Source: a virus (Duplodnaviria; Heunggongvirae; Uroviricota; Caudoviricetes). From it: DNA of 11,477 nt. Each line of letters opens with the position of its first letter. The stretch's first letter is position 1. This document shows, one piece after another, positions 2,757 to 11,335 of the stretch. Under the pieces are notes generated by a model. That model saw nothing but the letters and a program-made list of their open reading frames with translations, made no database searches and was not told the origin of the DNA. The position numbers and the translations under genes are program-made. Location: IMG/VR virus record IMGVR_UViG_2778261182_000004. The stretch is one strand, 5' to 3'.

Positions 2757-3101
2757 TCAGGCTATTGCCTGAAATTCAAGCGTGGCTCTGCTCAGACGGG
2801 AGTCAGGATCATACCCCTGCGTTTTAGAAATAACGGAGGGTGCCAGTTGCCTTACCGCATCAAGCGCCTGCTCACGGATATCATCTGCGTCATCAGGTAC
2901 TGTTGCCCAGACATCGATCTGCACGGTAATTCTGGATTCAGCCTGACCATCAAGCACATCAGACGCCGTGTCAGACACCACAGAAAACACCAGCCACGGC
3001 GGAGATACCGCAGGCTTTCCCTCCGTCAGCGGGACCACATAAGGATAAACCTGTCCTCCGGCCAGTTGAGACAGCAGGGAATACAGTGTGGCTTCCCTCA
3101 T
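2757..3101 (-). CDS. Putative tail terminator protein
   Basis: 114 aa, immediately upstream of the major tail gene, with an ATGA overlap to the preceding gene. Assignment by synteny only. Confidence 0.45.
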   Translation of the reverse strand: MREATLYSLLSQLAGGQVYPYVVPLTEGKPAVSPPWLVFSVVSDTASDVLDGQAESRITVQIDVWATVPDDADDIREQALDAVRQLAPSVISKTQGYDPDSRLSRATLEFQAIA

Positions 3102-3547
3102 TTACTTAAGACCTCATCAATAGCCTGATTCATTCGCTGTATGGCAACCTGCGCCGCCAGCTCCTCTGTCGTATCGAAAGCCGGGCGAATGAATGGATGC
3201 GCGGGCATGTTTATCGTTCCCAGCTCCACAAAGCGCCAGTAAAACGCATTTCGGGGATCGCTGGCTTTCATGCTGTTATCACTGTTTCCGGTTCGCAGGT
3301 TCCGTCCGCGAATGTGGACACCCGAGATAATTTCCCCCCGACGTTTTGAACGCTGCGTGAGAACAACCACATTTTTCTTCAGTTTCCCGGTTCGCTCCGG
3401 CGCACGTTCAACAACTGCATCCCGCATAACTTCAGCACCGGCACGGGTGGCATCGCGCAGAACCTTATTGTTTTCTGCCCTGCTGAGCGTATCCAGATCC
3501 CGTGCAATATCCGCCAGGCCGGAAAAATCAAGACTGAAATCCATCAC
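3098..3547 (-). CDS. Neck or tail-completion protein (HK97 gp10-like)
   Basis: 149 aa. The track start at 3547 is a GTG; an ATG at 3544..3542 shares one base with the upstream TGA stop and may be the real start. Confidence 0.55.
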   Translation of the reverse strand: MMDFSLDFSGLADIARDLDTLSRAENNKVLRDATRAGAEVMRDAVVERAPERTGKLKKNVVVLTQRSKRRGEIISGVHIRGRNLRTGNSDNSMKASDPRNAFYWRFVELGTINMPAHPFIRPAFDTTEELAAQVAIQRMNQAIDEVLSK

Positions 3548-3882
3548 ACACTCCCCGTCAGGCTGCAGAGTATTTCAAGCCGGGTGGCGCGAGCATCCGG
3601 TATTGGTGGACCTTCTATACCAAGAGTGACCCCTTTAAATGCACCGGTCAGCACTTTCAGACGTGAAGTCGCTGTCACATCGCGCCGGAATCTCATCCAG
3701 ACTCTGACCGTAGCCTGAGCGGTTTCTGCTCCGCCTGAGATTCTCTCCCTCCCGCTGATACCCTTAACTTCTGCCCATACGGTTGCCCCCTCCGTCATTG
3801 TCTCCACCGGATGTCCTGACGGAGAACGGACGGTGGTGACATTCAGAATAATTACGCGATCACGTAATCTGCCCGCCTGCAT
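3544..3882 (-). CDS. Head closure / head-tail joining protein
   Basis: 112 aa; AGGAGGAGG upstream of the ATG; second gene of the connector cluster. Confidence 0.6.
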   Translation of the reverse strand: MQAGRLRDRVIILNVTTVRSPSGHPVETMTEGATVWAEVKGISGRERISGGAETAQATVRVWMRFRRDVTATSRLKVLTGAFKGVTLGIEGPPIPDARATRLEILCSLTGSV

Positions 3883-9869: not shown

Positions 9870-10220
9870 TCAATTGATGCGTTCGCGCGCTGTTTTTGCT
9901 TTATGACAGGGCCAGCACAGACTCTGCAGGTTACTGTCTGCATCCGTGCCACCATGAGCTTTCGGAATGATGTGGTCCACAGTTCTGGCTTCAACGGCTA
10001 TCCCATTGCGCAGGCAGTTCTGACACAGATGATTATCACGCTTCAGTATGCGCGCACGTATGGCATCCCATTTCGAGCCATAGCCACGCTGGTGGCGGCT
10101 CAGTCCGCGCTGGTGCTGCACCCAGCCTTCACCCCGATGTTTATCGCAGTAACCAGAACTGTCTGTGGTTGTACCTGCACATCCACGCTTACGGCAGGCG
10201 CGTGGGATTAGTGATGGCAT
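9870..10220 (-). CDS. HNH endonuclease, terminase-associated (HK97 gp74-like)
   Basis: Cys and His pattern (C..C...H...C..C, DHIIPKAHGG, CWPCH) typical of HNH zinc-finger nucleases; GAGGAG upstream of the ATG; sits immediately upstream of the small terminase gene. Confidence 0.85.
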   Translation of the reverse strand: MPSLIPRACRKRGCAGTTTDSSGYCDKHRGEGWVQHQRGLSRHQRGYGSKWDAIRARILKRDNHLCQNCLRNGIAVEARTVDHIIPKAHGGTDADSNLQSLCWPCHKAKTARERIN

Positions 10221-10263: not shown

Positions 10264-10446
10264 TCAGTTCTGCATACACTGCCGGACACTATCAACAATT
10301 TCGCAGACCTGAGAAGCTGTATCGAAAAGCTGGTGCGCCTTATCCAGGCTGACGCATCCCACCAATAAAAAAGGCACCAGTATCGCTACCAGTGCCCATT
10401 TCGCCGCCGTTCGCGGCATTCTGTGTGTCCAGTGTTTTCGGCTCAT
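10264..10446 (-). CDS. Hypothetical small lipoprotein or signal-anchored protein with Cys-containing C-terminal region
   Basis: ORF track 60 aa. Segment MPRTAAKWALVAILVPFLLVGC is a canonical signal peptide ending in a lipobox-like LVGC; the short mature part has three Cys (VCEIVDSVRQC). The real start may be the internal Met (ATG 10419..10417). Confidence 0.45.
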   Translation of the reverse strand: MSRKHWTHRMPRTAAKWALVAILVPFLLVGCVSLDKAHQLFDTASQVCEIVDSVRQCMQN

Positions 10447-10447
10447 A

Positions 10448-10561
10448 TCACCACCAACGCACAGCCCAAATCAGAACAGCGACCGCCACAAGGCGAATTG
10501 CAAAGGCCGCAGCCCTTGTCAAATCAAGGCTCGCGGGAGTTTCCACTTCAATACCTTTCAT
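10448..10561 (-). CDS. Hypothetical 37-aa membrane peptide, polar N-terminus and C-terminal hydrophobic segment
   Basis: My own translation: MKGIEVETPASLDLTRAAAFAIRLVAVAVLIWAVRWW. ATG at 10561..10559 with GAGG 9 nt upstream; TGA stop at 10450..10448, 1 nt before the next gene's ATG. Below the ORF track size cutoff. Confidence 0.3.
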   Translation of the reverse strand: MKGIEVETPASLDLTRAAAFAIRLVAVAVLIWAVRWW

Positions 10562-10652
10562 AATGGACAACCTCAAAAAGAATCTTTTATACTTTCCCAC
10601 GAGGATTTTCTCCGTACTCACTACTCACAATTTCCTCTTTGACGTGAAAACT

Positions 10653-10687
10653 AAAAACCCCGGACTGTTCCAGCAGCCGGGGTTTTT
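10653..10687. terminator. Bidirectional intrinsic terminator
   Basis: AAAAA CCCCGG aCTG ttccag CAG CCGGGG TTTTT: a GC stem of about 9 bp with one bulge, flanked by an A-run and a T-run, so either transcript ends in a U-run. Confidence 0.6.
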
Positions 10688-10789
10688 GCTATCTGATGCT
10701 GTACCCCTTACTTTCACTCATCGTAACCCCAGAAAAGAGCCTGCGTGAGTTGAGGGTGTTCAGCACTTCAGCGTCATTTTTTAAACTGC

Positions 10790-11335
10790 TTAAACTGCTA
10801 CGCGCTCTTTCATCCAGCCGTAGACAAACGACTCGTTGGCCTCGCGTTTTTCTGCCAGCTCCAGATAGCGGTCGCCCTGCGTGCAATTCAGCGCCTTCAG
10901 CATCACCAGTTCGCCGTCTTTGCCGCGTTTTTGCAGATAAGTCCGTAGTGCATTAATCGTGCGGGGGCCGATACGCCCGTCTGCGTCCATATCCGGGAAC
11001 AATTTGCCTTGCAGGTTGAAAACGTTCAGCCAGCGCTGGAGCATTTTCGATGCTACGGACGGCCCCATATTCACACCGGTATCACACAACTCTGCAGCAA
11101 TATCAGAGGATAATGCGGCCACCTGATCAAAGCGTGGTCCGAACCAGTAATCCTCCTCAAGGATTTCCAGCGCCTGTTCGCGTGTCAGGTCACGCATATC
11201 GCCCTGATATCCGTGAGCGCGGGCGACTTTTTCCGTAATACCCCATTTTGTCGGTCCGCCTTTATCATCCGGGTGATTGACGTAACCGCCCTCTTTTCCC
11301 AGAACTTCGTCAAAAATTTCATCTTTCGACTTCAT
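10790..11335 (-). CDS. Endolysin, GH108-like N-terminal domain with probable peptidoglycan-binding C-terminal domain
   Basis: N-terminal motif EGGYVNHPDDKGGPTKWGIT matches my recollection of the glycoside hydrolase 108 family; no signal or SAR segment. The ORF track starts at 11356 on a TTG codon; an ATG at 11335..11333 preceded by GAAGG about 7 nt upstream is the more likely start. Confidence 0.75.
   Translation of the reverse strand: MKSKDEIFDEVLGKEGGYVNHPDDKGGPTKWGITEKVARAHGYQGDMRDLTREQALEILEEDYWFGPRFDQVAALSSDIAAELCDTGVNMGPSVASKMLQRWLNVFNLQGKLFPDMDADGRIGPRTINALRTYLQKRGKDGELVMLKALNCTQGDRYLELAEKREANESFVYGWMKERVAV

Follow-up and report, generated by a model that had tools for sequence, protein, structure and literature searches.

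A small lipoprotein gene in the spanin position of enterobacterial prophage lysis cassettes and an optional membrane-peptide gene with a putative antisense promoter

Two small genes downstream of the endolysin

Here, we describe two small genes, named ORF1 and ORF2 (open reading frames, ORFs), which occupy positions 10264 to 10561 of an 11,477-nucleotide (nt) stretch of viral DNA (Caudoviricetes; IMG/VR record IMGVR_UViG_2778261182_000004). The whole stretch is referred to as the window, and every feature of this part of it is located on the minus strand unless stated otherwise. In 5' to 3' direction, the end of a holin gene is followed by an endolysin gene, a hairpin, ORF1, a spacer of 1 nt, ORF2, an HNH endonuclease gene, and the genes of a P27-family small terminase and of the large terminase. 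The endolysin preceding ORF1 and ORF2 (10790..11335) carries GH108 and PG_binding_3 domains (Pfam, E 1e-26 and 1e-25). On the other side, the HNH endonuclease gene (9870..10220), itself followed by that of the P27-family small terminase, starts 43 nt past the ORF2 stop, and no terminator was found in this 43-nt gap.

ORF2 (10264..10446; ATG at 10446, stop codon 10266..10264) encodes a prolipoprotein of 60 amino acids (aa), MSRKHWTHRMPRTAAKWALVAILVPFLLVGCVSLDKAHQLFDTASQVCEIVDSVRQCMQN. Its signal peptide has an unusually long and basic n-region (M1-K16), an h-region from W17 to L27, a hydrophobic core of 14 residues, and the lipobox L28-V29-G30-C31, encoded at 10365..10354. The mature part (C31-N60) comprises 30 residues including the lipid-carrying cysteine, i.e., 29 after Cys31, and carries two further cysteines, Cys48 (10305..10303) and Cys57 (10278..10276). 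The C-terminus (…VDSVRQCMQN) is polar and the chain ends at residue 60, leaving no C-terminal transmembrane domain. ORF1 in its short form (10448..10561; ATG at 10561, stop at 10448) encodes a single-pass hydrophobic peptide of 37 aa, MKGIEVETPASLDLTRAAAFAIRLVAVAVLIWAVRWW, with a polar N-terminus and a hydrophobic stretch toward the C-terminus (A17-V34) that includes R23. The Shine-Dalgarno sequence GAGG is located 9 nt upstream of the ATG, and the junction to ORF2 reads TGG TGG TGA T ATG, which leaves a spacer of 1 nt. This confirms the original prediction, made from the letters of the window, in its coordinates and in its description of a 37-aa peptide with a polar N-terminus and a C-terminal hydrophobic segment, followed 1 nt later by a lipoprotein of about 60 aa with an LVGC lipobox and a cysteine-containing mature part.

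Loci were collected from IMG/VR contigs, phage records and bacterial assemblies; 94 carry full-length ORF2 (56 distinct DNAs) and 45 carry ORF1 (6 distinct). Both ORFs had been taken for small envelope-protein genes, with variation that ignores the reading frame named as the observation that would speak against them. The ratio of non-synonymous to synonymous diversity (pN/pS) of ORF2 is 0.20 in frame compared with 0.96 and 2.0 in the other frames, and for ORF1 it is 0.08 in frame (pS 0.43) compared with 1.6 and 4.2. Both ORFs are therefore real genes, and purifying selection acts on them in the frame given here. For ORF1, an explanation as conserved DNA without coding function was rejected, since its synonymous divergence is high and its non-synonymous divergence low.

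In an alignment of 18 ORF2 sequences, covering E. coli, Salmonella, Cronobacter, Citrobacter and Yersinia, residues L28, V29, G30, C31 and C48 are invariant, and C57 is conserved in at least 90%. All three cysteines are retained in more distant relatives as well, while other homologues exhibit lipobox variants such as LAGC, and the residue at position +2 is V, A or T. The N-terminal motif M-x-R-x-H-W-T-H-R is conserved, and since M1-R9 is kept at the protein level across genera, the 60-aa start is favoured over the 51-aa start of many annotations. The G+C content of ORF2 (0.52-0.57) is in line with the neighbouring genes.

Profile searches, which had been proposed for both products, returned no curated family for either of them, the only matches being to PHROGs of unknown function: phrog_7528 for ORF2 (E 5e-38) and phrog_4493 for ORF1 (E 7e-16). 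Neither protein has a match in Pfam (E up to 1), NCBIfam or PADLOC, and a sequence search of the PDB gave chance-level matches only. A profile search of ORF2 against 1.84 billion representative proteins outlined a narrow, enterobacterial family of 23 clusters, all of them small lipoproteins with the motif C-x(14-17)-V-C-x(8-9)-C, and provided no tie to any known family. Structure prediction had been suggested for both products and for the pair; the AlphaFold2 model of ORF2 is a single helix (residues 12-59) with a predicted local distance difference test (pLDDT) score of 67. The mature part has a net charge of about -2 and a hydrophobic moment of 0.28, compared with 0.16±0.08 in shuffled sequences (p ~0.09).

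ORF2 at the end of the lysis cassette

ORF2 is located downstream of an endolysin gene at all 83 loci compared (83/83). At 36 of them it lies about 14 nt past an M15 endolysin gene, without ORF1, and at 23 the arrangement is that of the window. Another 15 exhibit a GH108 endolysin gene, a terminator, a diverged 48-aa ORF1 variant, a 44-aa transmembrane ORF and ORF2. At a single locus (L070) the stop of the GH108 endolysin gene overlaps the ORF2 start, and a few loci carry a gene inserted between endolysin and ORF2. In Yersinia enterocolitica, endolysin and ORF2 overlap in the 4-nt sequence ATGA. A 63%-identical relative ends a three-gene cassette of Phage_holin_3_1, M15 peptidase and lipoprotein.

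The closest phage records are the Shiga toxin (Stx) phages phiSTEC1575-Stx2k, with both ORFs, and phiP27, with ORF2 only. They differ in tail type, phiP27 being a myovirus and phiSTEC1575-Stx2k a lambda-like phage. The packaging modules 3' of ORF2 vary between P27 HNH/Terminase_4, lambda Nu1/GpA and Terminase_2. No sigma-70 promoter was found on the coding strand of the ORF1/ORF2 region. As the position after the endolysin is constant while the packaging modules vary, ORF2 is to be seen as the terminal member of the lysis cassette and not as part of the packaging block. The moron position ascribed to the pair by the original prediction is not supported: the pair goes with the lysis cassette and not with packaging or tail modules, the G+C content of ORF2 resembles that of its neighbours, and ORF2 has no terminator of its own ahead of the HNH gene. 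ORF1 and ORF2 belong to the prophage lysis gene set and are not a free-standing moron.

Several other genes and elements were noted in or near these cassettes. Loci such as L031 and L050 carry the 44-aa transmembrane ORF (MSDSIIKLARILCVVVGL...) between the ORF1 variant and ORF2, and in locus L096 (2587-2868) a 93-aa soluble protein (phrog_33497) occupies the same slot. The record PP818812.1, 'Actinobacillus phage vB_Apl-pPE4' (L085), exhibits an E. coli-type cassette of holin, holin, M15 endolysin, a KilA-N insert and an unannotated ORF2 of 93% identity. A cassette of this kind is not expected in a Pasteurellaceae phage, which points to an enterobacterial origin or to a wrongly assigned host. 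In locus L001, outside the window and ahead of the holin genes, sub-threshold matches to the Rfam small RNA STnc100 were observed at 159-356 and 939-1138 (30-38 bits, with a gathering score of 47), close to tRNA genes situated before the lysis cassette.

The relation of ORF2 to the spanin genes Rz/Rz1 was examined in 80 cassettes that had been gathered with the Phage_holin_3_7 holin as query, and not with ORF2. ORF2 is the last gene in 59 of these 80 cassettes and canonical Rz/Rz1 in four, and both occur together in none. About 13 have neither ORF2 nor Rz/Rz1, a deletion having truncated ORF1 and removed the distal gene, and the remaining ones are interrupted by contig ends or insertions. No Rz/Rz1 match and no other credible lipoprotein was found within 4 kb of ORF2 at any of 80 loci. 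In phage GER2 (MG710528), which has a complete S-R-ORF1-Rz/Rz1 cassette, ORF2 is a pseudogene with four in-frame stops (L084, ~3489-3671). The alternation together with the decay in GER2 favours a functional equivalence of ORF2 with spanins over a role as regulator. On this positional and evolutionary evidence, ORF2 appears to supply the outer-membrane step of lysis that Rz/Rz1 supplies elsewhere.

In the deletion variants (IMG/VR loci L165-L187), ORF1 is truncated after MKGIE about 190 nt past the GH108 endolysin gene, and the next gene, on the opposite strand, encodes a lambda Bor-like lipoprotein. The prophages concerned may be lysis-defective or may have no need for an outer-membrane step.

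The original prediction held that neither gene product looks like a spanin. This is right insofar as both fall outside the canonical spanin definition. A match to a known spanin, named there as an observation that would speak against it, was found by half: the ORF2 homologue of phiP27 has been catalogued, computationally, as an o-spanin, i.e., the outer-membrane subunit of a two-component spanin. In the survey concerned, phiP27 appears as a 'separated' two-component spanin forming a singleton family, again by a computational call (Kongari et al. 2018, PMC6139136). Published spanin pairs have 62-300 periplasmic residues in total, and the lower value is that of the phiP27 pair, which shows the shortest periplasmic lengths of the survey (32 + 30 residues); a recognisable spanin is absent from about one in seven phage genomes (PMC6139136). 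The coordinates of the phiP27 o-spanin, 20706..20861, correspond to the 51-aa version of the ORF2 homologue. Its published inner-membrane partner, or i-spanin (NC_003356 20348..20542; L003 2671-2865), is an ORF with a TTG start, is antisense to a 90-aa ORF that matches phrog_36812 (E 5e-19), and lies within an inserted segment which is missing from most ORF2 loci. Because of these three properties, we consider the i-spanin of phiP27 probably a false call, and the published spanin assignment of this phage would need revision.

In agreement with the o-spanin entry, ORF2 is a predicted outer-membrane lipoprotein with a lipobox, no Asp at position +2 and a location distal to the endolysin. No partner i-spanin was found in the window, within 4 kb at the 80 loci, or in the whole genomes of phiP27 and phiSTEC1575-Stx2k, neither of which contains an Rz/Rz1 homologue or an i-spanin-like type II membrane protein. 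Other lipoprotein candidates in these two genomes are a 275-aa protein of the early region and a 141-aa protein upstream of stx, none of them in the lysis region. One of the two 'holins' was considered as a mis-annotated i-spanin and rejected, both being multi-pass proteins of the holin families PF16931 and PF05449. With regard to bridging the periplasm, ORF2 offers 29 residues, and 45 even with the N-terminus of ORF1 (16) added.

Compared with known systems, ORF2 combines features of several classes. Like the Rz1-type o-spanins, it has 60 aa (as lambda Rz1 does), a lipobox with a signal for sorting to the outer membrane, and conserved cysteines in the periplasmic part; it is the last lysis gene, in the slot of Rz/Rz1, and alternates with them. 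Unlike them, its mature part of about 29 residues is predicted to be helical and not proline-rich, no partner i-spanin was found in the window or in the two complete phage genomes, and there is no similarity to PF06085. It resembles the unimolecular spanin T1 gp11 in that one gene, which encodes an N-terminal lipoprotein signal, fills the spanin slot, but it has no C-terminal transmembrane domain, is about 100 residues shorter and cannot connect both membranes. With the disruptin phiKT gp28 it would share the nature of a short, probably helical peptide which acts on the outer membrane independently of an inner-membrane partner, in phages devoid of spanins; disruptin, however, is cationic, amphipathic and free of a signal sequence, whereas ORF2 is predicted to be lipid-anchored, is net negative and carries two cysteines. 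Finally, ORF2 is similar to Cor, Llp and Bor, which are likewise small lipoproteins encoded by phages and carry cysteines after processing. Those proteins are linked to tail or receptor-binding genes or are independently transcribed in the lysogen, whereas ORF2 has the orientation of the endolysin gene, overlaps it in some cases, and occurs irrespective of the tail type.

ORF1, its antisense promoter and the terminators

ORF1 shows one transmembrane segment and two candidate starts, and no match to a holin family in Pfam or PHROGs; two genes of holin families are already present in its cassette. A possible N-terminal extension (10562..10600) begins at GTG 10600 and yields a 50-aa form which adds GKYKRFFLRLSI, with four extra positive charges. 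The upstream start is conserved, as GTG in the window type and the Rz-linked type and as ATG in divergent variants, with a 3-nt indel that stays in frame, and the 50-aa form outscores the short form against both phrog_4493 and phrog_1115. The same stretch also carries an antisense promoter, so coding and promoter constraint are inseparable here and these observations do not decide for the long form; given the conserved in-frame GTG 10600, the true start of ORF1 is uncertain.

The identical ORF1 protein is indexed in 7,098 blocks of a public collection. There are two main alleles, which differ in about one fifth of their nucleotides and yet show only five residue changes, all of them conservative. 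The second allele, likewise of 37 aa, is located in Stx-type and enterohaemorrhagic E. coli (EHEC) prophages between the SAR lysozyme gene R and Rz (PF03245), 1 nt before the next start (EHEC genome loci L086-L095, gene at 3001-3114). Each of the two alleles is indexed in thousands of assemblies. Where the EHEC allele is named in records, it is a hypothetical or uncharacterised protein, and we found no literature on it.

Both contexts of ORF1 share a bidirectional terminator, a nearly invariant block of about 38 nt, an ORF rich in synonymous changes, and the junction CGTTGGTGGTGA-N-ATG; the junction to the next gene, ...TGGTGGTGA-N-ATG, is conserved ahead of ORF2 and Rz alike. ORF1 occurs with three types of endolysin and two of holin, and ahead of either distal gene. 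Among 5,426 complete E. coli genomes, 298 contain full-length ORF2 and 126 the window-type ORF1. The view of ORF1 and ORF2 as a pair thus holds for their adjacency in the window and not for an obligate association, as ORF1 is missing at 36 of the 83 ORF2 loci and also precedes Rz/Rz1. Since ORF1 occurs before either ORF2 or Rz and is missing at many ORF2 loci, it is better regarded as an accessory to the following outer-membrane gene than as the partner of ORF2. We take ORF1 to be an optional small inner-membrane peptide, a separate module that probably modulates lysis.

Between the endolysin gene and ORF1, a bidirectional intrinsic terminator, AAAAACCCCGG...CCGGGGTTTTT, is located at 10660..10690. 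The original prediction had correctly recognised a terminator upstream of ORF1, which consists of a GC-rich hairpin and a T-run with A/T runs on both sides. The Rz-linked locus has a different stem sequence and the same design of hairpin plus T-run. The 'TATAAA' element pointed out in the AT-rich stretch is better read as the complement of the -10 box TATACT (10588..10593) of a predicted plus-strand promoter. This sigma-70-like promoter (10564..10593, plus strand; TGGACA, 18 nt, TATACT) lies opposite ORF1 and overlaps its start region. It recurs at the same position and with the same 18-nt spacer in three diverged versions besides the window, namely the Rz-linked allele (L086, TGGACA/TATACT), the 48-aa variant (L031, TAGTCA/TATAAT) and a 45-aa variant (L008, TTGTCA/TATACT), and in each version it is the only promoter-like site of the scanned region. 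By alignment count, the promoter block differs by about 8% between the two ORF1 classes, compared with about 20% in the body of ORF1.

Promoter and terminator together delimit a putative cis-antisense small RNA of about 88 nt (10600..10690, plus strand; 68-94 nt in relatives). The predicted RNA is complementary to the leader of ORF1 and to the region of the GTG start. An Rfam match to the sar RNA of phage P22 is weak (23 bits compared with a gathering score of 43, E 0.087) and was not recovered in a larger search.

A terminator-like hairpin of 11 pairs, followed by TTTTTTATT, is located at 10372..10397 within the part of ORF2 that codes for the signal peptide. It is almost invariant, and the same element is present in L031 and L008. 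Codons 17-31 of ORF2 show a synonymous diversity of 0.088, compared with 0.19-0.22 in the rest of the gene. The hairpin, which codes for the hydrophobic core, could be an internal attenuator or a coincidence of Leu, Val and Phe codons, and the low diversity may reflect either an element acting in the RNA or a constraint from the signal peptide.

In comparison with other small lysis and toxin products, ORF1 resembles Lcc6 of LambdaSo and the products of holin/antiholin genes as a very small single-pass peptide in a lysis cassette that may have two starts. The predicted antisense promoter, conserved and directed at a bidirectional terminator, recalls the hok/sok type I toxins and the ant/sar regulation of P22. 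Unlike all of these, ORF1 shows no sequence similarity to any of them, and no promoter of its own was detected.

Interpretation and alternative explanations

The explanation we tentatively favour, and which we hold to be quite possible, is that ORF2 is a partner-less lipoprotein in the spanin slot, accompanied by ORF1 as an optional small membrane peptide that is probably under antisense control. Late antiterminated transcription would read through the terminator at 10690..10660, alongside the holins and the endolysin. ORF1 and ORF2 would then be translated, with coupling favoured by the 1-nt junction. ORF2 would be exported, lipidated at Cys31, cleaved by signal peptidase II and delivered via the Lol pathway to the periplasmic side of the outer membrane, i.e., its inner leaflet, a sorting expected because the residue after Cys31 is not Asp. 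After the endolysin has removed the murein, the short, mainly helical and mildly amphipathic, cysteine-bearing lipopeptide would destabilise the outer membrane, probably as an oligomer. It would thus carry out the third step of lysis in Gram-negative hosts with no inner-membrane protein dedicated to it as a partner. Cys48 and Cys57 probably form intermolecular disulfides or support an oligomer; as a distance of nine residues would place them on opposite sides of a helix, intermolecular bonds seem more plausible than intramolecular ones. ORF1 probably modulates lysis and is itself probably held in check by the cis-antisense RNA.

Several points weigh against this explanation. The function proposed for ORF2 is deduced from its genomic position. 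It has no i-spanin partner, and 29 mature residues cannot bridge the periplasm. It shows no sequence relation to Rz1, with no Pfam match to PF06085 at E up to 1, and an hhalign comparison with the Rz1 of a Stx phage gives a probability of 3% that covers the signal peptide only. The half of ORF2 that forms the signal peptide is conserved at least as well as the mature half, which is unusual for a lipoprotein. With a charge of about -2 and an amphipathicity not significantly above that of shuffled sequences, a membrane-active mechanism is not obvious, and the AlphaFold2 model is of low confidence. Moreover, the roughly 13 of 80 cassettes with neither ORF2 nor Rz/Rz1 imply that the outer-membrane step may be dispensable or that those prophages are defective. 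The explanation is weakest on the question of how a membrane could be breached by 29 residues.

Among the alternatives, it is unlikely, though well worth considering, that ORF2, ORF1 or both act as lysis regulators which tune the timing of lysis or the activity of endolysin and holin, with no dedicated outer-membrane step. Precedents exist in antiholins, T4 RI, Mu releasin and Lcc6 of LambdaSo, a transmembrane protein of 65 aa which is needed for the holin step (bioRxiv 10.1101/2024.01.23.576932). The varied company of ORF1, i.e., three endolysin types, two holin types and both distal genes, is that of a general modulator, its possible dual start recalls holin/antiholin pairs, and about 13 of 80 cassettes have neither distal gene. 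For ORF2, however, the strict alternation with Rz/Rz1 and the decay in the Rz/Rz1-bearing GER2 point to spanin equivalence, and from the outer membrane a lipoprotein could hardly act on holins in the inner membrane. A role in lysogenic conversion, be it superinfection exclusion as with Cor and Llp, serum resistance as with Bor, or another benefit to the host, appears improbable. Small disulfide-containing outer-membrane lipoproteins such as Llp block receptors. Furthermore, morons are known from the interval that separates lysis and packaging genes, where Bor is located in lambda and a Bor homologue in some relatives, and a terminator is present upstream of ORF1. But ORF2 shares the strand of the late genes, lies near them, and overlaps the endolysin stop in relatives; a coding-strand sigma-70 promoter, a terminator past ORF2 and a deviant G+C content were not found, nor was a PADLOC defence model or, at E up to 1, a Pfam family. 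Exclusion proteins specific for a receptor would also be expected to follow the tail genes, whereas ORF2 remains linked to the lysis cassette while packaging modules and tail types differ; the Cor/Llp-like superinfection exclusion considered in the original prediction is therefore not supported.

Two alternatives remain. In the one that we judge highly improbable, the genes form a miniature two-component spanin, with ORF1 as the i-spanin (N-terminus periplasmic, transmembrane domain C-terminal) and ORF2 as the o-spanin. In the window both lie next to each other with linked translation, and the survey lists the ORF2 homologue of phiP27 as an o-spanin. It also states explicitly that the role of an i-spanin could be filled by a type I protein of the inner membrane whose transmembrane domain is C-terminal (Kongari et al., PMC6139136). 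Yet ORF1 is missing at 36 of 83 ORF2 loci, in phiP27 and in Yersinia, the complete E. coli genomes with full-length ORF2 outnumber those with window-type ORF1 by 298 to 126, and in Stx-type prophages ORF1 precedes complete Rz/Rz1 pairs. With about 16 + 29 periplasmic residues at most, the two would be too short to reach across the periplasm, and the 50-aa form of ORF1 would put a +4 N-terminus in the cytoplasm. For ORF1 alone, independent of ORF2, a type I toxin-antitoxin-like cassette can be envisaged, in which a toxic peptide is repressed by the antisense RNA at 10600-10690; we consider this quite unlikely. A single-pass peptide of 37-50 aa would suit such a role, as would the antisense promoter, conserved with its fixed 18-nt spacing in four diverged versions, together with the bidirectional terminator. 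The predicted RNA covers the upstream start and the Shine-Dalgarno sequence, as Sok covers mok and sar covers ant, and the weak Rfam sar match points the same way, although it is below the family threshold and not reproducible. On the other hand, no promoter for the peptide gene was found between terminator and ORF1, curated family searches gave no similarity to known toxin families, and the conserved 1-nt junction to the next lysis gene suggests that ORF1 is part of the late lysis transcript.

The partner-less lipoprotein that we favour for ORF2 leads to a wider proposal, which we regard as possible and rather doubtful: ORF2 would represent a further class of outer-membrane disruptor, a partner-less, disulfide-capable lipopeptide of about 29 residues that is interchangeable with Rz/Rz1, and ORF1 with its antisense promoter would be an unrecognised regulated component of lysis in thousands of Stx- and P27-type prophages. 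Of the steps by which phages lyse Gram-negative cells, disruption of the outer membrane is the least settled, and ORF2 replaces Rz/Rz1 in otherwise identical cassettes of genetically tractable coliphages, including the Shiga-toxin phages phiP27 and phiSTEC1575-Stx2k. If the proposal is true, the outer membrane could be opened from its inner leaflet with no need to bridge the periplasm, a minimal peptide would be at hand for study, and the database entry of phiP27 as a 'two-component spanin' would be corrected. From a biological point of view, ORF1 and the antisense promoter are located in the lysis cassettes of EHEC Stx prophages, where the timing of lysis governs toxin release.

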